In this document: positions 632-51,293 of the stretch, one piece after another
Layout: every line of letters starts with the position of its first letter
Position numbering within the stretch: the first letter of the stretch is position 1
Program-made: the position numbers and the translations under genes
Notes under the pieces: model-generated
Told to the model about the DNA's origin: nothing
Databases searched by the model: none
Seen by the model: only the letters and a program-made list of their open reading frames with translations
Source of the DNA: Acidobacteriota bacterium
Lineage (GTDB): Bacteria; Acidobacteriota; Vicinamibacteria; Vicinamibacterales; 2-12-FULL-66-21
DNA length: 64,000 nucleotides
Assembly: GCA_046732715.1 (NCBI GenBank)
Contig: JBKPNQ010000004.1
Coordinates: 4,150-68,149 of the forward strand
Reading direction: 5' to 3'

Positions 632-2677
632 ATGCTGCATTCCAAAATGCAATTGGTTGTTGTTTCCGGCTTGGTGGTGAGTGTGGCCGTGATGGTCGCC
701 GTCGCCGCTCAGCAACAGCCCACGACTCAGCCCACGTTCCGCACCGCCGTCGACGCCGTGCAGGTCGACGTCTCGGTGCTCGACAAGGATCGGAAGCCGA
801 TTCGAGGACTGACGACGAGCGATTTCGCGATCCTTGAAGACGGCAAGCCGCGGCCGATTGTGGCCTTTGTTCCGGTGGACCTTGCCGAGACGGAGAAGAC
901 GACAGCGCCCGCGGCGTGGGTGCGCGACGTGGCGCCCGACATTGTCACGAACGCGGTCAAGCCCGAAGGCCGCCTCGTCGTGATCATGTTCGACTGGTCG
1001 ATCCGATTCGAAGACCAGATACTCGCGAAGAAGATCGCCGCCGCCGCCGTCGATCAACTTGGTCCGAACGATCTCGCCGCCGTGATCTTCACCAGCCAAT
1101 TCGCGAATGGCGGCACGCGGCAGAACTTTACAGCCGACCGCGGTCGCCTGCTCGCCGCGATCAATCAGCCGTTTGCCGTGGCGGCACACAATCCGCCGAA
1201 GGGCAACCCGTTCCACGATCCCCGCAACACGAACGAGGTCATGATCGACGATCCGGAAGGTTACGAGAGCGGCGACTGTTACTGCCGGATCTGCGTGCCC
1301 GAGACGATCGCGCGAGTGGCCGACGCCGTTCGTGATGTGCGCGGGCGGAGAAAGACGCTGTTGTTCATCGGCACCTACGTTCGTCTGTACGAGAGTCTGC
1401 AAGGGCCAACGACGCGACAGGGTCCTGAGTTCCGTCGTCCCGGGGCCAATGGTCTTCCTGTTGTGCATCCCGGTGGGTGCGGTTCTTACTTGAAGGATGC
1501 GCGCGGCAAGATGGATCGAGCGACGTCGCTGGCCAACCTGACCATCCACAGCATCGATCCAGTGGGCATGGAAAACGAAGGCAACAGCCCGATGGGCGGA
1601 TCGATCATCGGCCAGATCGATCGGCGCGACGATCTCGCGGCGCTTGCCGACACCACCGGTGGTCGCGCAGTGATGAACACCAACGCCCCGGAAGCACTCG
1701 TGCCCGCGCTGTTCGCGGAAAGCCACTCGTATTACCTCCTCGCCTTTTTGCCGGCAGACCCGAACGCAAAAGGGAAGTTCCACAAGATTGAGGTGAAGGT
1801 GAACCGCCCCGGCGTGAACGTGCGGACGCGCGCCGGCTACTACACCGGCGAGACGCGCGTGAAAGAGGGTGCGCCGAACCTGTTGAACCCCGAAACGGCC
1901 ACCGCACTCGAAGGGATTCTGCCGCGCGCAGAGGTGCCGCTCGGCGTCGGAGTGGCGCCCTTCGCCATGCGCGGCCGCGAGGAGTCTGCGGTCGCGGTCG
2001 TGCTCGGCGTACGACCGCAGATGGCGGGGGATCGGCCTGGATCGAACCAGGAGGTCAACGTGCTGGCGGCGGCGTTTGACCGCAACGGTCGATCGGTTCA
2101 ATCGGTCGAGCGCACCGTCGCCATCGAGTCACCTTCGAAGGCGACCGGTGACGCTCCCTATGAAGTGCTCTTGCGGATGGCATTGAAGCCGGGCCGATAC
2201 GAGATTCGCGTCGCACTTGATGCGGGATCGGCCGGGCCTGCCAGCGTCTACACCTACGCCGACGTTCCGGACTTCGCGGAGCAGCCGCTGTCGCTGTCTG
2301 GGGTCGTCGTGGCGACGTCACCGGCGCCGCCGTCGGCGCCCCAGGATGCGTTCAAGGATCTGCTGCCGATTGTTCCGACCGCACGGCGCGAGTTCGCCCG
2401 GACCAGCCGAGCCTCGGCATTCGTTCGTGTGTATCAGCGGTTGCGTGACGCGCCTCAGCCAGTCGGCGTAACCGCCCAAATCCGCGACACCGCCGGGCGC
2501 GTACTGATGAAGGATGCGGCGTCGCTCGACGCTGCGCAGTTTGGAGCGAATCGCGCCGCCGACTATCGCATCGCGCTGCCGATCGAACGGCTGACCGCCG
2601 GCGAGTACCTGTTGAGCATCGAGGCAATGCAAAGTCAGCATTCTGCCGGTCGCGCTCTCCGATTTACGGTCCGCTGA
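632..2677 (+). CDS. VWA domain protein (VWFA-related acidobacterial type), secreted
   Basis: Signal peptide; PTFRTAVDAVQVDVSVLDK..PIRGLT..DF..EDGK; LADTTGGRA, YYLL, FHKIEVKVNRPG..VRTRAGY; start may be 647. Confidence 0.9.
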   Translation: MLHSKMQLVVVSGLVVSVAVMVAVAAQQQPTTQPTFRTAVDAVQVDVSVLDKDRKPIRGLTTSDFAILEDGKPRPIVAFVPVDLAETEKTTAPAAWVRDVAPDIVTNAVKPEGRLVVIMFDWSIRFEDQILAKKIAAAAVDQLGPNDLAAVIFTSQFANGGTRQNFTADRGRLLAAINQPFAVAAHNPPKGNPFHDPRNTNEVMIDDPEGYESGDCYCRICVPETIARVADAVRDVRGRRKTLLFIGTYVRLYESLQGPTTRQGPEFRRPGANGLPVVHPGGCGSYLKDARGKMDRATSLANLTIHSIDPVGMENEGNSPMGGSIIGQIDRRDDLAALADTTGGRAVMNTNAPEALVPALFAESHSYYLLAFLPADPNAKGKFHKIEVKVNRPGVNVRTRAGYYTGETRVKEGAPNLLNPETATALEGILPRAEVPLGVGVAPFAMRGREESAVAVVLGVRPQMAGDRPGSNQEVNVLAAAFDRNGRSVQSVERTVAIESPSKATGDAPYEVLLRMALKPGRYEIRVALDAGSAGPASVYTYADVPDFAEQPLSLSGVVVATSPAPPSAPQDAFKDLLPIVPTARREFARTSRASAFVRVYQRLRDAPQPVGVTAQIRDTAGRVLMKDAASLDAAQFGANRAADYRIALPIERLTAGEYLLSIEAMQSQHSAGRALRFTVR

Positions 2678-2682
2678 CCACT

Positions 2683-2727
2683 AAAAGGTGGCTGGCACCT
2701 TTCCCGGAAAGGTGCCAGCCACCTTTT
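2683..2727. repeat. REP-like 22-bp perfect inverted repeat; possible terminator
   Basis: aaaaggtggctggcacctttcc-c-ggaaaggtgccagccacctttt; each arm is itself an imperfect palindrome; directly after the VWA stop. Confidence 0.85.
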
Positions 2728-2800
2728 TCGCGCCTCAAGGCCACTTAAGCTACAATTTCGCAACTGTTTGCGTCGGTTTTGTGACCTGACCGGGAGCGCG

Positions 2801-5800
2801 ATGAAACGACTCGGGATTTGTGTTGGGTTCGTCGGCCTCGGCGCCGCTTTGCTCGCAGCGCACGGGCGCGCGACTCTACGTACCCCTCGAATCGATTCCG
2901 CTCGCTCAGCGAACGTGTCTGGCACCCACGGCACTCCGAGCACCCCTGTCACTCGTTCCACCCAATCCACTCCGGGCACTCCAGGCAGGCGTGCCCCCCT
3001 GGGCACCTTTGCTGCTCCCGACACCTTCAAGAAGTACTGCTTCGAATGTCACGGCGGCGAGAAGCACCGCGGCGACGTCAGCATCGAAAAGCTGATCGAA
3101 CAATCCGCGCGGACCACGATTGGCGACCACTGGGACGAGTGGGACAAGGTTGCCGGGATGCTGGAATCGAAGGAGATGCCGCCCGAGGACAAGGCGGAGA
3201 TCTTCCCGACCGACGCCGAGCGCGCGGCGACCGTCGGATGGATTCGATCGTCGCTGCACAAGTATCAGGCCGAACACGCCGGCGAACCCGGGCGCATCAC
3301 GGTCCGCCGTCTCACCAGCGCCGAATATGCTTACGCGATTCGCGATCTCACCGGCATCGACATCAAGGTCGGCATCGACGGGTCCAGTGACTCGGTCGGC
3401 GGCGAAGGCTTCACCAATTTTGGCGACGTGCAGTTTGTACAGGACACCAGCATCGAGCGATATCTCGAGGCCGCAAAGCAGGTCGCTGATCACGCCATCG
3501 TCGGCGCCGGCCCGCTCGACTTTTTCGTCGACACCGGCAAGACCGGACTGGAACTTTCCGCGCTAGCTCGGATTGACGATCTCTACGCCGCGAAGGGTTT
3601 TCGCGTTGTGTCAGGCGAAGGTGGACGCCCATTTGGCCTCGAGCGGTACGGCAAGGCGCTCTTCGTGGCGTGGTACTACAAGCATCGCGTCGCGCTTGGT
3701 GACCCAACCGCGACCATTCGCGGGCTTGCGGCGAAGGAAGACATCACCGGCCGATTTGCCGAACACATCTGGTCCGTCGTCAACAAACCCAACACCGGAT
3801 ACCCGACGCGGACGACGGTGGATGGCTGGATGAAACTGCCGGCACCCACTGCTGACATCAAAGCGTCGATCGCGAAGGCTCGGGCTGGATGCGACGATCT
3901 TTACAAAGCGCTGACAACGTGGCCGAGCTGGTTCTTTGCGAGGGGCGATCTTGCGGCGGGCGGTGCCGGCGATGAAAGCCCACTGACGTTTGACGACAAG
4001 ACGCTGCAAGCCGAGCCGACGCATCACTATACGTATGCGCTGGGCGCACGCGGCGGACGTCGCGGAGGCCCGCCCGCTGTCGGTCCGACGAAAGTGTTTC
4101 TGACGTTTGCCGACGTCAATCCTGGAACTGGAACCACACCGGTGGTGATCTGGCGGAATCCGCGCGTCGTCACGCGGGCACCCGTCGCGCCTGGACGTGG
4201 AGCGCCAGGCGCAGCCCCGGCTACGGTGGCGACAGGAACGGGCCCTGGCCGCGGTGCCGTTGGTCCCGTCCTCTCGACTCAATCGTTACGCGCAGCGCTT
4301 GCACCGGACGCATCCGCCGCGCTGCGTTTCGGCACGAGCCCGGATGGGTCCTCTGTCGGCGGTGATGACTTCGCGACGACCGGTCCCGTGTCGTTCACCA
4401 TTGATGTTCCGCCGGGCGGCAATGTCCTCGAGTTTCAGGCCGACGCCGAGCTCGGCAAGGATCGAAATGCCGTCGTTCGGGTCACGATCTCCGATCGCGC
4501 CGAAGGTTCGCCGCGCGATGCGGCGCAGCGCGTCATGTTTGGCGATCCGCACAGCGTGGGCTACGAGACGTTCCGCGGACACATCGCTGAGTACGTATCG
4601 CTCCTGCCGCCGAACTCGCATGGCGAGGCCAATCCCGCCGACAAGGACCCGGTTCCGCCTCCGTTCGACGATACCTACAACAGCCCCGAGCACGACGCCT
4701 TCGTGCTGAAGGTGAAGTACCAGCGCAACGACAAGTTCTTTACCGACAACATGGTCGATGGCGCCGATCGCGCGCGGTTGAACCAGGCCTGGACCGATCT
4801 GTTCGGGTCGTGGCCGTACCACGACGCCTATCTCGGCATGCTGGCGGAGCACTACGGGCTCACGTTGAAGAGCAACAAGATCGACGACTTCGGCCCCGCC
4901 GAAATCGCGGCGCTGCCGGCTGACGTCAGGCCGTATGTGAAATCGCTGCGCGCCAATTACGACGAGGTGATTCGTGCTCAGATGCTCGGGCAGCCGCAGC
5001 ATCTGACCGATGCGCTGTCCTTTGCCAGCCGCGCCTGGCGGCGTCCGCTGACCGTGGAGGAGAAAGCAAGCCTTCGCGCGTTCTATCAGAAATCGCGCGC
5101 GGACACTCACCTCGATCACGATGCAGCCATTCGCGCGCTCATCGCCCGCATCCTCGTCTCGCCGCAGTTCCTGTATCGGGTGGAGGCGGTGGGCAGTGGG
5201 CCGGAGCGGCCGCTGAACGGCTGGGAGATGGCGAGCCGCCTCAGCTTCTTCCTGTGGTCGTCGATCCCGGACGATGAACTTCGAAGGGCGGCGGCCGCAG
5301 GGGAGTTGAGCAGGCCCGCGCTTCTGGCGAAGCAGGTCAAACGCATGACCGCCGACCCGAAGGCGCGTCGCCTGGCGACGGAGTTTTTCGGGCAGTGGCT
5401 CGGCTTCTATCATTTCGATGAGTACCGCGGCGTCGACACGACGCGGTTCCCCGAGTTCAAGGACGACGTGAAGCTGGCGATGTACGACGAGGCGATTTCA
5501 ACGTTCGAGTACATTGTCCGGCAACAACGTCCGGTCAAGGAGATCCTCACCGCCGACTACACGTTCCTCAACAAGCCGCTGGCTGCGTTCTACGGGGTGG
5601 CGAAAGACTTGAAGTTGACCGACAAGATCGAGCGGGTCGACGGCGCGAACGCGTTCGAGCGGGGTGGCGCACTGCGGCTTGGGTCGGTTCTGACGACCAC
5701 GTCGGCGCCGCTGCGCACGAGTCCGGTGAAGCGCGGCGACTGGGTGCTTCGGAGGATCCTCGGAACACCGACGCCTCCGCCACCGGCGGACGCGGGGACG

Positions 5801-43670: not shown

Positions 43671-43757
43671 GCGAAAAATTCACTTAACCGATTAAAAAAT
43701 AAAGAGTTACAGGTTCTGGTTGTCGTGCTACTTTGGTCGGCCCGGAGGTCCGACTGC

Positions 43758-45446
43758 ATGCCTACGAACGCGCTGGATCAGCAGAGGCCGTCTCAGTTGC
43801 TCGAACGTCTCCTCGATACGCCGAATCTTCCGCAGGTGGTTCGCGAGCTCGACCCGCAGATCTTGCATCGGCTGGTCCGCGTTGTTGGGCTCGAAGACTG
43901 CGGAGAAATCGTCTCGCTGGCGACTCCAGCTCAGTTGACCCGAGTCTTCGACGTCGACTTGTGGCGAAGCGATCGTCCCGGTCATGCCGAGAAATTCGAT
44001 GCGGCCCGGTTTGGAATCTGGCTCGAAGTCCTCGTCGAATCCGGACTCTCGAACGCTGCGCTGAAGGTGGCGGGACTCGACGTCGACTTTGTTACATCCG
44101 CGATCCTGCAGCACGTGATGGTCATCGACCAGGCGGCCGAGACCGCGGCCGCTGTCTTTCGGCAGATCGTCAACGACAGCCAGGAAGAAGAGGTGTATGA
44201 GCGGCCCTCGATCATCGAAAGAATTCGGGAAAGCGGTGCGACCTGCGAGATAGCCGGATACGCCATCGTCGCAAAACGCAGTGAGTCGTGGGACGCACTG
44301 GTCGCAGTGCTTGGCGCGCTCCATGGCGAGCATCAGGATTTCTTCCACCGGTTGATGAGCAGCTGCTGTTCCGTTTCGGCAAAAGAGATTGCAGACGAGA
44401 GCGGTTCGTACGAATTGCTGAATGCACCGGAGCAGCTGCGTTTCGACGTGGCCTTCGATCGCGAACAACGCCGCGAAGGGCAGGGCTATGTCACCGCCCC
44501 GCAGGCTTCGGCGTTTCTGCAGTCGGCAAGACGTATTGCGCTTCGAGCCGACGCCGCGCCAGCCCGCGATGACCTGACGCGAGCCTATTTTCGTGAGCTC
44601 GAACGCCAGCCGCGATGGAGCGAACGCGAGTCAGCGGCGCCGTCGCAAAACTCCGGGCCGTCGCCCCAGTCAGAGCCTGGAATGGCGAGCTTCATGGAAA
44701 CGCTGCGCGAGGCTGGCGTGGTGGCGGATGCACCGCGTGCGCTTCTTGCTGGCGACGTCGCTGCCAACGCTCGTCGCTCGACGCTTACCGAACACTTGCA
44801 GTTCGTCAGCGAACACGATGAGGATGCATTCACGAGACGCAACGAGGAACTCGGCTATCTCGCCAACGTGCTCGTCTCTGGCTGCTCGTTCAATTCGGCT
44901 GAATTCAGCTCTGCCGCCGCCCAGGACGCCGTCGTGGCGACGTGCAATCTCGGCCTGGAGAACTGGCCGCGGCAATGGCGTGACGTGTCAAAGGCCGCGG
45001 AGGCTGACACGTTGCTACCGCCGAATTTTTTGCTGCGCCACGATCTCGTCACGGTGTTCAAGGTGGGATGGACTGTACTTTTCGAACAGGTGGTGGTTTA
45101 CGTGACCCGGCGCGTGATTGAGATCCTGTCAGAGTTGTCGTCGGACGATAGCGATCTGCATAGCGATCTGCGCGAGGTGTGCCGGAAGCTGCACGCGTCT
45201 CTCCGCGCCGGGACTCCGTGGTCTGCCCGCGATCACCTCGACGTCATCGCGATTCTCGACACCCCGTCGTGGGCCATGCTGCTTCGATTGCTCGACGAGT
45301 GCCCGGTGCTTTCTGCCGATCTCGACACGAAAACTTCCGGCCGCGGCCTCAGAGTATCGACCGATTTCTCGTTCATCTCCGAGAATCGCCAGATTGCAAG
45401 AGTGCACCAATTCATCGAAGAACTGCCTGACAGGTTAGTGGGATGA
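43758..45446 (+). CDS. Hypothetical protein, DUF6178-like
   Basis: GGAGG RBS; LHRLVRVVGLEDCGEIVSLATPAQL..FDVDLW, RREGQGYV, ELGYLANVL; family recalled from memory. Confidence 0.6.
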   Translation: MPTNALDQQRPSQLLERLLDTPNLPQVVRELDPQILHRLVRVVGLEDCGEIVSLATPAQLTRVFDVDLWRSDRPGHAEKFDAARFGIWLEVLVESGLSNAALKVAGLDVDFVTSAILQHVMVIDQAAETAAAVFRQIVNDSQEEEVYERPSIIERIRESGATCEIAGYAIVAKRSESWDALVAVLGALHGEHQDFFHRLMSSCCSVSAKEIADESGSYELLNAPEQLRFDVAFDREQRREGQGYVTAPQASAFLQSARRIALRADAAPARDDLTRAYFRELERQPRWSERESAAPSQNSGPSPQSEPGMASFMETLREAGVVADAPRALLAGDVAANARRSTLTEHLQFVSEHDEDAFTRRNEELGYLANVLVSGCSFNSAEFSSAAAQDAVVATCNLGLENWPRQWRDVSKAAEADTLLPPNFLLRHDLVTVFKVGWTVLFEQVVVYVTRRVIEILSELSSDDSDLHSDLREVCRKLHASLRAGTPWSARDHLDVIAILDTPSWAMLLRLLDECPVLSADLDTKTSGRGLRVSTDFSFISENRQIARVHQFIEELPDRLVG

Positions 45447-45456
45447 GGCTGCGCTC

Positions 45457-46752
45457 CTACTTTGGCATCCACCGCGTACGCAGAACGGTCTGTCCTGTCG
45501 ACCCACTCGTCCACGCGATCACCGTGCCGCCGTCGGTGACCGCAACAACGGGATAGGTGGCCGGAGCCGCATCGTCGATTGGCTGCCGAACGAGTTGCGC
45601 GGCGCCGGAGCGGTTGACGTCGCCGCGGGCAAGCACAACGCGGCGCACGCCGGGCGCCTGCTCCTCCCACACGACGACGATCTCTCTCTTCGCCGTTACC
45701 GCGACCTGAGCATGACGGGGCAGCCCTTCCGTTGGTAACGGTTGCCGTGGCGTGAAGTGGACGCCGTCCTGCGACGTCGCGTAGAACATTCCTAAGGCCG
45801 GCTCGGTTGACGACGATCCGCCGGGGACGAGCGTCGGCCAGACCACGTGAACCCGCTTCTGCTGATCGACGGCAAGGGCCGGGCCATTCTCGGGACATCC
45901 GTCGAGCACCCACTTGTCCTCGCTCACCCGCACCGGTGCGCTGAACGATCGGCCGCCATCGAATGACCGGCTGAACGCGATGTCACGGATGTTGCCGTCG
46001 TACACGTGACGCCACGCCGCGTAGACGCCTCCGTCGGCATCGGTCGCGATCGACGTCTTGCAGCAGTAGCAGACGCCGCCTGTCAGCGCGCGTGCACTGT
46101 CGCGGCTGTCGAGCCTCGCGAAGAAGAGCTTCGAGAGCTGTGCGCGCGCGACTCCCTCCGTCTTGTTCACGCCCGATGCGGCGTGCTGATGCTCCGCGTG
46201 GTTCATCGCTGTTCCGCCAGCCACGGCCAGGCTGCGATGATCGAGCCACATGGCAACGACGGAGCCGTCGCCACTGGTGGCGAGTGATTCCCATCCGCGG
46301 TTCCCAGGCGCATCGGTGCCCGGCACAGGCTGCGCCGCTGTGAAGGACTGTCCGCCGTTGTCGGATCGCGCAGAGAAAAGTCGGGTTCCCGTATCGCTCT
46401 TCGCCGTCCAGACGACGATGATGGCGGGATCGAGACTGGCGCGGTGGATGAGCGTTACCCGTGGTGGTTGCTCACCAGAGACGTTCGCCGAAACCGTGGC
46501 GCTGTTTACGCGACTGGGGGCTCCGAAGCTTTGTCCACCGTCGCGGCTGACCGAGGCGTAGACGCCGGTGACGCCATCTTTCGTCGCGCCCCACGCGATC
46601 GCTGCGAATCTGCCGCTCGCCGCAATCGAAGCGAACGCGTTGGATCGATCCTTTACCCCGATTTGCGTCGGCGGTCCGGCTGCCATTCCGGACGTTGACT
46701 GCAGCAGCGCCGCAACAATCAGAACCGGTCCGCAGGTTTTCCAGAGACTCAT
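45457..46752 (-). CDS. BNR/Asp-box (sialidase-like) periplasmic protein with Cys/His motifs
   Basis: Asp boxes SRDGGQSF, SDNGGQSF, SFDGGRSF, SQDGVHF; CYCCKT, GCPENGP, MNHAEHQH. Confidence 0.85.
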   Translation of the reverse strand: MSLWKTCGPVLIVAALLQSTSGMAAGPPTQIGVKDRSNAFASIAASGRFAAIAWGATKDGVTGVYASVSRDGGQSFGAPSRVNSATVSANVSGEQPPRVTLIHRASLDPAIIVVWTAKSDTGTRLFSARSDNGGQSFTAAQPVPGTDAPGNRGWESLATSGDGSVVAMWLDHRSLAVAGGTAMNHAEHQHAASGVNKTEGVARAQLSKLFFARLDSRDSARALTGGVCYCCKTSIATDADGGVYAAWRHVYDGNIRDIAFSRSFDGGRSFSAPVRVSEDKWVLDGCPENGPALAVDQQKRVHVVWPTLVPGGSSSTEPALGMFYATSQDGVHFTPRQPLPTEGLPRHAQVAVTAKREIVVVWEEQAPGVRRVVLARGDVNRSGAAQLVRQPIDDAAPATYPVVAVTDGGTVIAWTSGSTGQTVLRTRWMPK

Positions 46753-46769
46753 GTGATGGATCGTTCCTC

Positions 46770-49622
46770 TCAAAACGTCAGTCGCAGCCCGAATTGAAAC
46801 ATCCTGGGATCGCCGACGGCCGTGATCTCGTTGAACGTTGACACCGGGTTCGCCGGATACGCACCGCTGCCAAAATTCGTATTCCTGGTCAGGTTGTTCA
46901 CGCGATTTGTCACGTTGAAGCCTTCCACAAGCCCCTCGAGCTTGACGTTGCCACCGATCCGGAATGTGCGCGTCGCACGCAGGTTCAGCGCGAAGAAATC
47001 GTTGCCGATTCCCGCATTCCTCGGGATGAACGCCACGCTTCGAACATCGAAGTTCGCGGACGTCGTCGCTCCGTTCGCCAGTGGACGTCCGGTCGGGCCC
47101 TGCAGGCTCGCCACTCCCGACGTGATGTTGAAAGGCAAGGCCGAGTAGTACTGCAACATGCCGCTCAGCTGGAAGCCGTGGCTGATGTGGTCCCACACCG
47201 TTGCGGCGGGCGCCATCGACGTGTTCACGGTTCCGTTGACCACGAGTCGATGCCGCTGATCGTCGTCTGACCGGCCCCAGTCTCGCATGATGTCGGTCGA
47301 ATCGATTGGCGAACTGAAGAACGCTTCGCCGACGTTGTTCATCGACTTGGACAACGTGTAAGTGAGACGAAGGCTCGACCACGCCGTCGGTCGCTGCACG
47401 AACGACAGATGCGCGCCGTGATAGTTGGATCTGGCGGCGGATGAATACTGGCTGTTGTTTCGGTAGGAGGCGTTGGGCCGGCAGCTGTTGTTGGGTCCGG
47501 CGGCGACGCAGGTCGCGACATTCTGGTTGATGGACATGAGCAAATCGTCGCCGCGCACATATTGATAGCCGGCACTGACCGTTCGACCCACGCCAATGGC
47601 GTGCTCGACTTCCAGGCTTGCCTGCGTCGAGTGCGCATTCTGCAGGTCTTTGTCCATCGTCGTGAAGTCGACGAGCGTGGTCGTCAGGATCCGCGCCGGC
47701 AGAATGTTGGGGAAGGTCGGCGCGCCATCCTGCGTTGGGATAAGTCCGGCCACGGTGGGCTGATGCACGTTGTTCACGTCTGTCGTGTTGCCCGCTGAGA
47801 GAATCGCGTTGGCGACTGCGCGTAGAGGCACACGGTCGAAGAACAGACCGCCGCTGCCGCGAATGACGAAATCACGCGAGGCGGATGGCGCCCATGCGAA
47901 GCCGGCTCTCGGCGATACGTTGTTGCGATCGGTGTTGATCGGCTGCAGATATTGAAGATCGTAGCGCAGGCCCAGATTGACCGTCAGATCCGATCCGATT
48001 CGCCATTCATCTTGCAGGTAGAGTCCCACGTTCGGATTCGTTTGCGATACGACCGGATCCCCGAACGTCTGCGTGAACCCGCTATAGTTGCCAGCCAGGA
48101 AGTTGGCGAGTGTCGAAAACGAATAGCTGCCGCGAAACGAACGGGGATACGTGATGGTGTCGTCGTTGAACACGTAATCCACACCGGCCCGCAGCGCATG
48201 CGCGCCGGCCTGGTGTGAGAGGTTGTTGACCACCTGATACATCTTGTTCAGACGTCGTGTGGGACTGCCCGACGAGGTGCCGAACAACGCGACGCCAGCG
48301 ATGCTGACGGCTGGTCCTGTCAAATCCGTCGGCGGCGCCTTCAAGTCGCCGTAGGCAAATTGGACACGCGTTTCGTTGACCGTCTTTGGCGAGATCGTCC
48401 ACGTATTCGCGAGCGCCACGGAGTGGTCGGTATTATCCAGACCGGCTGAGGCGGTCGCCGCGTTCAACGCACCGGCCCCACGGGAGTTGTCTGCGGTGAC
48501 GTGATAGAGGCTGTATCGGACGGACAGCTGGTCGGATCCGCTCGCGTGATGATCGATCTTGCCGAGCATGGTCGCGCTGTGCACGGGATTCGGATAGACG
48601 CCCGTGCTGATGAGCGATCCCGGATACTCAACCGCCGCCAGCTTCGCGTTGATGACCGGGACATTCTCCGGCAGGATCGTGACGAGTCCCGTCTGATCGA
48701 GGAGCCGCTGTTCGAAGTTCGAGAAGTAAAACGTTCGGTTCCTGACCACTGGTCCGCCGATGCTGGCGCCGTACTGCTGCTGATCCATCGGCAGCGTCTT
48801 GCCCGACAGTGCATTTGCCGCGTTGAGATTGTCGTCGCGGATGAAGTCGTACACGGAGCCGTTGACGGCATTCGTTCCGCTCTTCGTGACGACGCTGACG
48901 TAACCGCCAAGAGCCCGGCCAAGCGCGGCTTGTGCGCCGGACGTGACCACCTGAAACTGTTCGACTGCGTCGACACCGAACGGTATGCCGCTCACGCCGG
49001 CCGCATCATCGTTTGCCGAGACGCCATCGACGATGAAGGTGTTCGACAGGTTTCGCTGGCTGGCGACGGAGATGCCTTGCCCAGGGACCGCTGACGTTTC
49101 CGCAAACAATTGCGCGCTGCCGAGATTGGTCGGCGCGACGCCGGGAACGAGCAGCGCCAGATCGAGGAAGTTCCTGCCGTTCATCGGCAAGTTCTGAATC
49201 TCGACCTGCGGTACTGTTCCTGCGATCTGGGTTCGCGCTGTCTCGAGAACGGCCGCATTGCCGCTCACGCTCACATTCGTTTCGAGCCCGGCGATCGCGA
49301 GCACGAGCGAAAGGTCGAAGGCCGAACCACCGGCGAGCGTCAGCGACCGGGTCAGACCGGCGAACCCCTGCAGACGAACCTTCAGTTCGTAGTGACCGAC
49401 CTTCAGATAGGGAAAGCGGAAACGCCCGGACGCATCAGTGACAGTCTCAGTCGTCAAGTTCGTGTCGGTCTGGCGGGCACGGACTTGGGCCCCTGGGACC
49501 GACGCTCCCTGCTGATCCGTCACGCGACCGCTGACGCTCGCGTAATCAACCGATTGCTGCGCGGCAACCGGCTGGGCGCACGCAAGCGCGGCACAGACGA
49601 GAACCGCCAGACTCCACGGCAC
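46770..49622 (-). CDS. TonB-dependent receptor (Oar-like)
   Basis: GGAGG RBS, signal peptide, NLPMNGRNFLDLALL, DAVEQFQV, TKSGTN, NLGLRYD, C-terminal RMFQFGLRLTF. Confidence 0.95.
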   Translation of the reverse strand: MPWSLAVLVCAALACAQPVAAQQSVDYASVSGRVTDQQGASVPGAQVRARQTDTNLTTETVTDASGRFRFPYLKVGHYELKVRLQGFAGLTRSLTLAGGSAFDLSLVLAIAGLETNVSVSGNAAVLETARTQIAGTVPQVEIQNLPMNGRNFLDLALLVPGVAPTNLGSAQLFAETSAVPGQGISVASQRNLSNTFIVDGVSANDDAAGVSGIPFGVDAVEQFQVVTSGAQAALGRALGGYVSVVTKSGTNAVNGSVYDFIRDDNLNAANALSGKTLPMDQQQYGASIGGPVVRNRTFYFSNFEQRLLDQTGLVTILPENVPVINAKLAAVEYPGSLISTGVYPNPVHSATMLGKIDHHASGSDQLSVRYSLYHVTADNSRGAGALNAATASAGLDNTDHSVALANTWTISPKTVNETRVQFAYGDLKAPPTDLTGPAVSIAGVALFGTSSGSPTRRLNKMYQVVNNLSHQAGAHALRAGVDYVFNDDTITYPRSFRGSYSFSTLANFLAGNYSGFTQTFGDPVVSQTNPNVGLYLQDEWRIGSDLTVNLGLRYDLQYLQPINTDRNNVSPRAGFAWAPSASRDFVIRGSGGLFFDRVPLRAVANAILSAGNTTDVNNVHQPTVAGLIPTQDGAPTFPNILPARILTTTLVDFTTMDKDLQNAHSTQASLEVEHAIGVGRTVSAGYQYVRGDDLLMSINQNVATCVAAGPNNSCRPNASYRNNSQYSSAARSNYHGAHLSFVQRPTAWSSLRLTYTLSKSMNNVGEAFFSSPIDSTDIMRDWGRSDDDQRHRLVVNGTVNTSMAPAATVWDHISHGFQLSGMLQYYSALPFNITSGVASLQGPTGRPLANGATTSANFDVRSVAFIPRNAGIGNDFFALNLRATRTFRIGGNVKLEGLVEGFNVTNRVNNLTRNTNFGSGAYPANPVSTFNEITAVGDPRMFQFGLRLTF

Positions 49623-49656
49623 GCAAACACCTCCACGAAAACGGCACTATTCCACT

Positions 49657-49678
49657 TCGAGGCACACACGTGCCTCGA
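49657..49678. promoter_or_regulatory. Stem-loop between the leader ORF and the receptor RBS
   Basis: tcgaggcac-acac-gtgcctcga, extendable by cact/agtg. Confidence 0.55.
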
Positions 49679-49696
49679 GTGCAGAGACGAGTGACG

Positions 49697-50143
49697 TTAC
49701 GCGCGTGGGGGAGGAGCGTCGGGAGGTTGGAACTGTCGAATCAGTTGAATCGTGGAAGGAAGCGCGTCGCCGGCGACCGGAAAGTCGATTGTTGAGGCAA
49801 CCGAAGCTGTCAACACGCCATCAGTCGAGAGCAGGGCCAGCAGCGCTGCGGTTGGACCGCCGCACGTGCCGCGAAGTGCGCAATCGTGCCCAGGCGTTGA
49901 TCCTGCCGGCGCCGCCGCGTCGTGCATCTGGCCGTGATCGTGATGCATCGACCGGGAAGTGGTCTCGTCCGCCGGCGTCGGGCAGTGCGCAACCGCCGCC
50001 TGCTCGTGGCCACCGCTGTGGGCGGCGGAACCTGAGTGATGCGCCAGGCAGCAGGCCCTCGGGACGAGCGTCGAGAGCGACATCACCTGGAAAAGGATCC
50101 AGGCCGCCGACAAAAGACGCAGGCGCTGACGAAATGCGGCCAT
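49697..50143 (-). CDS. Cys/His-rich exported leader protein with Pro-rich C-terminus (DUF2946/CruR-like architecture)
   Basis: N-terminal hydrophobic segment, CCLAHH, HCP, MHHDHGQMH, CALRGTC, ends QPPDAPPPRA-stop; directly upstream of the TonB receptor. Confidence 0.65.
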   Translation of the reverse strand: MAAFRQRLRLLSAAWILFQVMSLSTLVPRACCLAHHSGSAAHSGGHEQAAVAHCPTPADETTSRSMHHDHGQMHDAAAPAGSTPGHDCALRGTCGGPTAALLALLSTDGVLTASVASTIDFPVAGDALPSTIQLIRQFQPPDAPPPRA

Positions 50144-50193
50144 TGATCTGGAACAGATTAACCAACTAAGGGCACCGGCGCAACCGATGGATA

Positions 50194-50210
50194 CGCACAG
50201 AGCGTGCCAG
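50194..50210 (-). promoter_or_regulatory. sigma54 (-24/-12) promoter of the leader-receptor-BNR operon
   Basis: Minus strand CTGGCACGCTCTGTGCG, GG-N10-GC, about 50 nt upstream of ATG 50143. Confidence 0.6.
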
Positions 50211-50343
50211 ACGCTATCGCCAGAAAATGGCGGAAACAGCCCGGAACCGCTCGGCGCGCGTAAGCGCTTACGCTGAATTGTCAAATCCGCGTTTGCAGAT
50301 CCCTTGCCTGGATAGTGATGTGAAACGACGATCCCTTTCGCGG

Positions 50344-50713
50344 CTATTCAAATCGACGTGCATCGATCGGATCGACCTCAGCCGCCCGGCGAGCCGGGTA
50401 CCAGCCAAAGAAAATGCCGATGAATGCCGCGAACGCGAATGAGCCGAGCGCGGTGGAACTGGAGATGTCCGTGGGCCATTCCAGGAATGGAGTCAGGCTC
50501 GTTGAGATGATGTATCCGAGCGCGATGCCGACGATGCCGCCGGCCGCAGAGACGAAAACGGCCTCGGTCGGCGGTTTGGGCGCCGCTGCCGAGGGCGACG
50601 ATGGTGATGACCGCGGCGACGCCGACGGCAATGCCAACCATAGTGAGGATCGTGCGGAACAGGTTGCGGCGCAGGGCTTTGAGCGCGACCGCCACAATCG
50701 ATGACGCGGACAT
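50344..50713 (-). pseudogene. MacB-like ABC permease remnant (internal deletion with frameshift)
   Basis: One frame reads ALKALRRNLFRTILTMVGIAVGVAAVITIVALGSGAQT; near 50569 another frame continues TEAVFVSAAGG..IGIFFGWYPARRAAEVDPIDARRFE; middle of the protein absent. Confidence 0.85.
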
Positions 50714-50735
50714 GCCATCGATCGTACTACGACGT

Positions 50736-50825: not shown

Positions 50826-51293
50826 GTGAAGCGTCCGACCCGCCCCGTAGACACGCCGGCGGCGCTGCCGGACGTGCTGGAATTCATGCAGCTGCTGTGG
50901 GCGGTGGTGCACGGCCTGGAGCGATCGTCGAAGCGTATGAGCCGCGCGCTCGGCGTGACCGGGCCGCAGCGGCTGGTGCTGCGGGTGGTCGGGCTGTTCC
51001 CGGGGCTGTCGGCCGGGGACCTTGCGACCATCATGCATGTCCACCCCAGCACGCTGACCGGCGTGCTCCAGCGCCTGACCTCGCAGAGACTTCTCCACCG
51101 GATCGACGACCCGCGCGACCGTCGCCGCGCCATTCTCCGCCTGACGCCGGGCGGCCGGCGGGTGAACGCGGTTCGCGCCGGCACGGTGGAGTCCGCGGTC
51201 GCCGCCGCCCTCGCCGGGGTCAGCCACCTCGATCGGGTCGCCACGAAACGGGTGCTCGAGCGCCTGGCCAGGTATCTGCAGCCCTCCGATTGA
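50826..51293 (+). CDS. MarR family transcriptional regulator
   Basis: GVTGPQRLVL, SAGDLA..HVHPSTLTGVLQRL, DPRDRR..LRLTPGG. Confidence 0.92.
   Translation: MKRPTRPVDTPAALPDVLEFMQLLWAVVHGLERSSKRMSRALGVTGPQRLVLRVVGLFPGLSAGDLATIMHVHPSTLTGVLQRLTSQRLLHRIDDPRDRRRAILRLTPGGRRVNAVRAGTVESAVAAALAGVSHLDRVATKRVLERLARYLQPSD

Follow-up and report, generated by a model that had tools for sequence, protein, structure and literature searches.

Gene arrangement of the locus

We analysed a stretch of 64,000 nucleotides (nt) of contig JBKPNQ010000004.1 from an Acidobacteriota bacterium of the order Vicinamibacterales, hereafter called the window, and focused on three consecutive genes on its minus strand (Table 1). 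The first encodes a small protein of 148 amino acids (aa), here called the leader, and is separated by a short spacer, holding a hairpin and a Shine–Dalgarno (SD) sequence, from the gene of a TonB-dependent-type outer-membrane receptor, behind which lies the gene of a BNR/sialidase-like β-propeller protein. A preliminary description of the window, made from its letters alone, had listed these elements and had proposed that the small open reading frame (ORF) is a divergent acidobacterial version of DUF2946 leaders such as CutF and CruR, which control downstream copper genes through a CxxC motif and a C-terminal arrest segment, and that it governs Cu, Ni or Co uptake. The layout was accurate, the listed features being found again, and the comparisons reported below suggest that the leader is probably an arrest peptide of this kind, belonging to a family of its own.

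The leader contains five Cys (C31, C32, C54, C88 and C94), ten His and four Met residues, and its C-terminal end reads QPPDAPPPRA. A longer form starting at TTG 50284 (195 aa) was considered and rejected as unlikely, because homologs of 139–150 aa begin at the position of the ATG.

Table 1. Features of the leader–receptor–BNR locus, with positions in the window
Feature	Position	Strand	Remarks
Leader (putative sensor) ORF, including stop codon (P0001)	49697..50143	-	148 aa; ATG 50143, TAA 49699..49697
Putative N-terminal export signal or signal anchor	50063..50143	-	Residues 1–27; Arg-rich start, then hydrophobic stretch
C31-C32-x-x-H35 motif	50039..50053	-	Directly after the hydrophobic segment
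C88-x5-C94 motif	49862..49882	-	CALRGTC
Tail P140-P-D-A-P-P-P-R-A148 and TAA, putative arrest motif	49697..49726	-	GCU CCU CC (49717..49710) predicted to double as anti-SD
Spacer from leader stop to receptor start	74 nt	-	Holds the hairpin of 9 base pairs (bp) and the receptor SD
Long imperfect stem, P1+P2+P3 (predicted)	49627..49717	-	Minimum-free-energy (MFE) fold, pair probabilities, covariation
P1	49717..49710 with 49634..49627	-	Tail codons GCU CCU CC (A143–P145) with SD region GGAGGUGU
P2	49698..49690 with 49647..49640	-	Stop codon and post-stop sequence with the region upstream of the SD; MFE fold
P3, apical hairpin	49657..49678	-	Perfect 9 bp; UCGAGGCAC-GUGU-GUGCCUCGA; 5' arm 49678..49670, 3' arm 49665..49657
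Receptor SD and start	49620..49634	-	GGAGG 49634..49630; GTG 49622..49620; GGAGG and start-codon context conserved
TonB-dependent-type outer-membrane receptor with N-terminal CarboxypepD_reg	46770..49622	-	950 aa; Pfam
BNR/sialidase-like β-propeller protein, described as exported	45457..46761	-	434 aa; optional third gene
σ54-type -24/-12-like element, TGGCAC-N5-GTGC	50195..50209	-	TGGCACGCTCTGTGC; G instead of T at -14 relative to TGGCAC-N5-TTGC
σ70-like -35/-10, TTGCGC-N17-TAATCT	50155..50183	-	Ends 11 nt before the leader ATG

A conserved family of leader proteins

Homologs of the leader were retrieved with phmmer-type searches, which gave 82 proteins at E ≤ 0.01, mostly of 139–150 aa, and 214 cluster representatives at E ≤ 0.001, with 73 of the latter at E ≤ 1e-10. 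Every source that names these proteins labels them 'hypothetical protein', and the leader has no match in Pfam or NCBIfam at E ≤ 1. Among 77 diverse members, residues C31, C32, C94, P145 and P146 are invariant, and M1, R5, W15, Q19, A25, H67, C88, P97 and R147 are conserved in at least 90%. Judged from these alignments, the family is real and conserved, beyond what chance would give.

The N-terminus begins Arg-rich and continues with a hydrophobic stretch of 18 residues, and the V-P-R-A sequence found before the CC pair is, in our reading, not a typical cleavage site. In the alignment of homologs W15, F18, Q19, S22 and L23 are nearly invariant, and S24, L26 and V27 are invariant. An AlphaFold2 model computed with the family alignment has a helix at residues 2–26 with a predicted local distance difference test score (pLDDT) of about 95, and no globular fold beyond this N-terminal helix (mean pLDDT 66.5, predicted template-modelling score 0.33).

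The putative metal ligands recur throughout the family. A CC-x(1-3)-H motif is found in 107 of the 112 distinct leader sequences and Cx5C in 110, in line with the preliminary description, which had pointed to CC and Cx5C in place of the CxxC of DUF2946 leaders; a CPMH motif is present in 63. We take CPMH and the Met/His stretches of the family to be Cu(I)-type motifs. At the other end of the protein, the same 112 sequences finish in PP[RK]-x-stop in 107 cases and in PPP[RK]-x-stop in 98, and exactly one residue follows the Arg or Lys of the tail in 106 of 110 sequences. Conservation of the Cys residues and of the PPPR tail upstream of orthologous receptors had been named beforehand as a check of the proposal, and both are nearly invariant.

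The distance between these two parts is fixed. Wherever both motifs are present (110 sequences), the last Cys of Cx5C precedes the final PP by 48–51 residues, and in 85 of these sequences by exactly 50, although the sequence of the linker from Cx5C to the tail is poorly conserved. The N-terminal half, in contrast, varies in length, with 31 to 76 residues between CC and Cx5C. In this constancy of the sensor-to-tail distance the leader family resembles CruR.

Linkage of the leader to one receptor family

Almost all of the 214 representatives belong to a single acidobacterial order, Vicinamibacterales. The family profile matches 15 of 401 sampled Acidobacteriota genomes, namely that of the window (where the leader occurs in one copy), 13 more of its order and one outside the order. 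Among the genomes with distant members are the closed ones G110, G044 and G399.

To assess the gene context we used 42 loci with a complete leader end, comprising the window, 8 genome contigs and 33 metagenome contigs, of which two have no room downstream. In 39 of the 40 assessable loci a receptor ortholog (60–97% identity) directly follows the leader, and the spacer measures 70–81 nt in 32 of these 39. The sole exception is L016 (239-967), where leader residues 1–140 run into unrelated sequence; the resulting 242-aa product, with a precomputed assignment to PF18011, has neither PPPR tail nor receptor, and this contig is either chimeric or rearranged.

The association extends to more distant relatives. 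Thirteen divergent genome loci were collected, and among the 11 downstream ORFs tested 10 carry CarboxypepD_reg together with OMP_b-brl_4 or Plug; the ORF downstream in L050 has no Pfam family, and in L055 no downstream ORF met our criteria. In the reverse direction, of 60 further genomes in the order, 13 have a receptor ortholog (at least 47% identity), and the leader lies directly upstream of it in 12 of the 13. Conservation of the leader with the receptor, the other check proposed at the outset, is thereby borne out in both directions.

The genome with a receptor and no leader, G429 (L072, C11:314600-315700; 57% receptor identity), has a divergent gene for a membrane histidine-kinase-like protein (H-box AAHELSTPL), the start of which lies some 50 nt away from that of the receptor. 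An exchange of one control device for another may have taken place here.

The receptor of the window matches OMP_b-brl_4 (2.8e-107), CarboxypepD_reg (1.1e-20) and TonB_dep_Rec_b-barrel (33.2 bits, cut-off 27). Plug (PF07715) has no match in it at E ≤ 1 and is present in two distant relatives, L056 and L057. A sequence search of the PDB gave no match for the receptor at E ≤ 0.001 and none for the BNR protein at E ≤ 1, and NCBIfam returned nothing useful for either.

The BNR protein scores 24 bits against BNR_2 (PF13088), under the cut-off of 31.4, and a precomputed table assigns PF13088 to the same protein and to many relatives; its nearest ESM Atlas clusters are of the sialidase family. The Cys- and His-containing motifs ascribed to it in the preliminary description are real, as GVCYCCKT, DGCPENGP and HAEHQH are kept in all six aligned orthologs. 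The gene is an optional partner and not a constant member of the operon, being found behind the receptor in 6 of the 13 distinct loci that reach far enough. Its family, with 2381 proteins at E ≤ 1e-10, is far larger than that of the leader. In locus L053 (G399, about 1900-3350) a distant leader-like ORF with the tail LDVPPPRG stands immediately before a BNR-like gene, the receptor being absent from between the two; that gene shows the same motifs, as CFCC, EGCPDDGP and VWPTLVPG, and its frame seems to be split over two ORFs. Here the link between the BNR family and the leader does not run through the receptor.

A predicted RNA stem that joins the tail codons to the receptor SD

The preliminary description had noted a 9-bp hairpin before the receptor ribosome-binding site. 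The hairpin is present, but it only caps a longer predicted stem, at the base of which the codons of the PPP motif pair with the SD sequence of the receptor (Table 1). The SD–tail pairing has a probability of 0.97 in the window and exceeds 0.5 in 32 of 34 distinct loci, the exceptions being L005 and L038, the latter with a mutated tail. The MFE fold of the window also pairs the Ala148 codon with the CGU just before the SD. The loci used for the RNA analyses are related to each other, and their counts are therefore not independent.

In the divergent loci, for which we assigned the receptor starts ourselves, the SD region is predicted to pair with the tail in 10 of 11 cases, with different partner sequences: in the PPPK clade, for instance, these are CCUCCGAA and UUCGGAGG, and in L050 CCACCUC and GAGGUGG. 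The energy of the tail–SD duplex reaches the 5% level against random 20-mers of the same locus in only 3 of these 11 loci. G-rich stretches that can pair with a C-rich tail are numerous. Among the closer relatives, inserts in L012, L014 and L043 replace or extend only the apical hairpin, and the outer helices (tail–SD and post-stop) are kept: in L012 (437-611) and L014 (2559-2725) the hairpin is swapped for a palindromic insert of about 60 nt, and in L043 (880-1025) it is lengthened.

Codon usage in the tail departs from that of the rest of the loci. The codon of P144 is CCT in 22 of 33 loci and that of P145 in 16, against a CCT background of 9.5% in the same loci; the codon of A143 is GCT in 20 of the 33, against a background of 8.4%, and P146 is encoded by the common codon CCG in 26. 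The sequence CCTCC falls within the last eight leader codons in 26 of the 33 loci. This use of rare CCU and GCU codons, which creates CUCCUCC, points to selection acting on the RNA.

A covariance-model alignment comprised 38 matches in 35 distinct rows, among which one is a spurious match on the reverse strand. In this alignment 79.3% of the cells are paired, versus 75.7% after shuffling (none of 500 shuffles reaching the observed value) and 41–55% when slid, and 14 of 25 pairs change on both sides. The apical helix is paired in 87.2% of cells, with changes on both sides in five of its nine pairs. P2 duplexes formed by cognate strands have the higher stability, at -9.28 kcal/mol vs -7.94 kcal/mol for non-cognate strands (permutation p ~0.007). 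RNAalifold on a plain MAFFT alignment, which does not follow the structure, recovered for this reason only 5 pairs, and was replaced by folds of the individual sequences and the covariance-model alignment. A search of Rfam returned only a chance match, Yar_3 (E=0.5). On these folds, the spacer RNA is predicted to mask the SD of the receptor.

Comparison with CutF, CruR and other arrest systems

CutF, from the cutFOG operon of Rhodobacter capsulatus, ends in P109EPEGPPPRL118, has Cys residues C5, C12 and C41xxxC45 in its mature form, and loses the Cu-dependent induction of CutO when PPP is changed to PAP (bioRxiv 10.1101/2025.02.05.636593). After its export it is quickly broken down (PMC9973294). 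CruR (Bp2923) of Bordetella pertussis, a DUF2946 (PF11162) protein encoded by the upstream ORF of cruR-bfrG-bp2921, has a CXXC motif and, three residues from its end, RAPP, and works by Rho-dependent termination before the gene of a TonB-dependent transporter; Roy et al. report that the 45 residues from CXXC to RAPP are kept within 1–2, and that five additional residues impair copper control (PMC9426467).

The tail of the leader had been presented as distinct from those of known leaders. The end of CutF is against this, since QPPDAPPPRA resembles PEPEGPPPRL, and the tail is therefore of the CutF type and not a new motif. As in CutF (bioRxiv 10.1101/2025.02.05.636593; PMC9973294), the leader is a small, presumably exported protein, the product of the first gene in its operon, with two N-proximal Cys and a C-x(n)-C pair that make up four core Cys, with a C-terminus of the form P-[DE]-[AG]-P-P-P-R-x-stop, and with a spacer of less than 100 nt in which a stem, here a predicted one, masks the SD of the next gene. 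The two differ in the arrangement of the Cys residues (Cx5C and an adjacent CC here, CxxxC in CutF), in the distance from the last Cys to PP (about 50 residues here, about 41 in CutF) and in the regulated gene, which here encodes a TonB-type importer with CarboxypepD_reg and in the CutF operon the multicopper oxidase CutO. In addition, the leader has no detectable sequence relationship to CutF and belongs to another phylum, Acidobacteriota. The putative stall codons of the leader are also the predicted anti-SD strand. Set beside the rule-based definition of 'CutF-like' proteins (PMC9973294), the leader is shorter than 150 aa, has PP within its last 15 residues (PPP being residues 144–146 of 148) and has a same-strand neighbour within 1000 nt, and the signal-peptide rule is represented by its N-terminal hydrophobic helix only.

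With CruR (PMC9426467; PMC9973294) the leader shares an operon in which the second gene encodes a TonB-dependent transporter (a TonB-dependent-type receptor here) and a third gene follows it, a Cys motif at a conserved distance from a C-terminal Pro-containing arrest motif (putative here), and an N-terminal export signal, predicted for CruR and putative here. It differs in having Cx5C, with PPPR one residue before the end, instead of CXXC with RAPP three residues before the end; in a 74-nt spacer predicted to pair with the SD, instead of Rho-dependent termination across 162 nt; and in the third gene, which is a BNR gene here and not in the CruR operon. The Pfam model of DUF2946 does not match the leader family.

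The last point concerns the family assignment made in the preliminary description, which the searches do not support. PF11162 (cut-off 23.7 bits) matches none of 77 leader family members at E ≤ 10, has no match in a six-frame search of the genome of the window, and is carried by none of 92 hits of the leader profile. An hhalign comparison of the leader family (77 sequences) with eight acidobacterial DUF2946 proteins, a small set with no proteobacterial members, gave a probability of 2.4% over 19 columns. CzcI and DUF2946 clusters, at 0.94, are among the nearest named clusters in the ESM Atlas, which we regard as a lead and not as evidence. The leader family may be very distantly related to DUF2946, or it may be a convergent solution. 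Canonical DUF2946 genes occur in 10 of the 401 sampled Acidobacteriota genomes, seven of them over the cut-off, and none of these genomes holds the PPPR family. The acidobacterial DUF2946 genes (L059-L067) have CxxC and end in R[AG]PP plus 1–11 residues.

SecM, VemP and MifM likewise combine an exported nascent chain, a C-terminal arrest and the unmasking of the SD of the next gene, as proposed here for the leader. They differ in sensing the activity of the export machinery and not a ligand, in their unrelated arrest sequences, and in their targets, which are Sec or YidC components.

Proposed mechanism

Taken together, these comparisons suggest that the 148-aa ORF is probably a cis-acting arrest leader of the CutF/CruR kind, likely to sense copper, that unmasks the receptor gene's ribosome-binding site. 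In the free mRNA, the tail codons GCU CCU CC and the post-stop sequence would pair with the SD region of the receptor, with the 9-bp hairpin on top. As the leader is translated, its N-terminus would insert into or through the inner membrane. When the ribosome reaches PPP-R-A-stop, the candidate ligands C31, C32, H35, the Met/His stretch and C88-x5-C94, the last about 50 residues upstream, would be just out on the periplasmic side; by our estimate, about 50 residues is roughly the length that spans the ribosomal tunnel and the translocon. Metal bound to these ligands, most likely Cu(I), would change the pull on the nascent chain or its fold, and so set the dwell of the ribosome on the poly-proline tail. 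A ribosome on the tail would hold the stem open and allow a second ribosome to start on the receptor gene, and once it leaves the stem would re-form, such that dwell time is converted into receptor synthesis.

Copper is our best guess for the sensed metal, on account of the Cys-rich ligand set, the CPMH and Met/His stretches and the fact that both precedents sense copper. As to the sign of the response, we lean slightly towards metal relieving the stall and turning the receptor off, as in CruR, over metal causing the stall, as in CutF: the former suits an uptake receptor, and the latter suits the identical tail. The genome of the window has two genes of the elongation factor P (EF-P) family (G000 C125:24111-24272 and C183:19838-19993), and an EF-P paralog could matter for the relief of poly-proline stalls.

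A fuller version of this proposal, which we put forward tentatively and hold to be doubtful as a whole, would run as follows. About nine nucleotides would both encode the Ala-Pro-Pro arrest motif and form the anti-SD, and dwell on them would be the sole gate of the receptor; Cu(I) on CC, Cx5C and CPMH, with the peptidyl-transferase centre some 50 residues away, would lift the stall and turn the importer off; the family would have arisen in Vicinamibacterales by convergence with DUF2946; and the Cys-rich BNR propeller would have been recruited as a periplasmic partner.

Several observations weigh against an arrest leader that gates the SD. The leader family is not detectably related to DUF2946 by sequence, and a product of 148 aa whose metal motifs are conserved could also be a stable protein of the periplasm. 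The tail of CutF does not by itself stall in E. coli LepB fusions (PMC9973294), and a PPPR tail is thus no proof of arrest. Some tails of close relatives deviate: in L011 (5418-5447), a relative 94% identical to the window, the end is ARPPRA through a CCT to CGT change, and in L038 (655-684) it is SPRPGI, with a changed SD, GUGAGGUGG, that pairs elsewhere. At the RNA level, the fold z-score is modest, both for the 161-nt stretch of the window (-1.71) and on average over the 34 distinct loci (mean -2.2 against dinucleotide shuffles). Tail–SD pairing amounts to 0.91 for the native sequences vs 0.65 for synonymous recodings, which means that part of it is inherent in Pro codons (CCN) facing GGAGG. 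P2 is paired in only 52–74% of the covariance-model alignment, which, being fitted to the model, favours structure. Finally, in a simulation with the tail blocked as by a stalled ribosome, the unpaired SD rose only from 0.12 to 0.30–0.35, which supports the proposed opening weakly, and in 3 of 17 loci the SD did not open at all.

In kind, the interpretation offered in the preliminary description was right, as far as the anatomy of a stalling leader, the synteny, the fixed distance and, in silico, the masking of the SD are concerned. It did not hold for the link to DUF2946, the novelty of the tail, the extent of the hairpin or the constancy of the BNR gene.

Alternative explanations

The best-surviving alternative, which we nevertheless consider unlikely, is that the leader persists as a stable metal-binding protein, anchored in the membrane or periplasmic, and serves the receptor in trans as a chaperone or partner, with the Pro-rich end being a protein contact and the RNA pairing arising as a by-product. 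A protein of 148 aa, conserved along its length and provided with Cys/His/Met motifs, would suit such a function; its strict co-location with one receptor family is as expected for a partner protein, and the pairing retained by recoded tails is compatible with a by-product. A trans-acting partner would, however, leave unexplained why the distance from Cys to PP is fixed across a poorly conserved linker, why the tail is always one residue from the stop, and why the enrichment of rare codons strengthens the anti-SD. The lack of a predicted globular fold also speaks against it, as do the form of the tail, which is that of the functionally required PPP tail of CutF (bioRxiv 10.1101/2025.02.05.636593), and the rapid degradation of CutF after export (PMC9973294).

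An arrest sensor could also have Rho-dependent termination between leader and receptor as its output, instead of SD masking or besides it, which we regard as improbable. CruR provides a precedent, controlling a TonB-dependent transporter in this way (PMC9426467), and the spacer has no intrinsic terminator, so that any termination would need Rho. The spacer, at 70–81 nt in most loci, is nevertheless short in comparison with the 162 nt of cruR-bfrG (PMC9973294), and it is almost wholly taken up by predicted pairing with the SD, which is a better fit to the stem-loop model of CutF.

Lastly, a chance ORF and hairpin with the receptor controlled at its promoter only, σ54-like or other, would accord with the modest z-score of the window fold and with a σ54-like match that is not significant in the window alone, but is refuted, unless the homologs are mis-called frames, by the conservation data (a family of 214 representatives that has invariant residues, a syntenic receptor at 39 of 40 loci and a conserved ruler), leaving it hardly any probability.

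Implications

To our knowledge, nascent-chain control of outer-membrane metal import has been demonstrated by experiment in no case but those of CruR and CutF, which are both proteobacterial and belong to DUF2946. A literature search found nothing that joins an arrest peptide, TonB-dependent transport and Acidobacteria. The string 'Acidobacter' is absent from the main text of PMC9973294, and the strings 'Acidobacteri' and 'Vicinamibacter' are absent from three supplementary files of PMC9426467.

The present work adds an unannotated leader family in a different phylum, that of the abundant soil Acidobacteria. Its members have the anatomy of CutF and CruR with no detectable sequence relationship to them, an exceptionally sharp ruler, and stall codons that apparently are themselves the RNA mask. 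If the arrest-leader reading is confirmed, the principle of metal sensing by a nascent chain would be general, possibly convergent, and the family would offer a clean natural test case for the reach of a periplasmic binding event on the ribosome. The CarboxypepD_reg receptor and its BNR partner would then become candidates for a part in the uptake of metal, probably copper, in a group for which hardly any genetics exists. The leader would represent a new branch of a known principle, and does not open a new kind of mechanism.

Promoter region and neighbouring genes

The σ54-like promoter noted in the preliminary description is present as an element, and a form of it, TGGC[AG][CT]-N5-[GT]TGC, recurs in 25 of 38 distinct upstream regions, at 66–109 nt ahead of the leader ATG. 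It is the single match in the window, where 0.59 would be expected by chance, and for that reason is not significant when the window is taken alone. A protein with Sigma54_DBD (rpoN) is encoded in the genome. We also considered TGGCAC-N5-GTGC as a palindromic operator, which is less likely, because the left half is conserved as TGGCA[CT] and the right half only as [GT]TGC.

Closer to the leader, a sequence of the form TTTGC-N~19-TAA[GT]CT, ending 11–14 nt before the ATG, is found in 29 of the 38 distinct upstream regions (L001-L044). A consensus scan of 49550..50400 detected no σ70 promoter and no intrinsic terminator. The recurrent sequence could be a σ70-type promoter that gives a nearly leaderless mRNA, which would fit the leader ATG, as no SD precedes it.

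Upstream of the leader, a 124-aa ORF on the minus strand (50344-50718) matches FtsX-like permeases, and these in their C-terminal part only; beyond it lies a divergent gene for a MarR-family regulator (50826-51293, plus strand). On the other side of the cluster, the gene of a 573-aa DUF6178 protein converges with the BNR gene (43725-45446, plus strand), and the same neighbour is found in L001.

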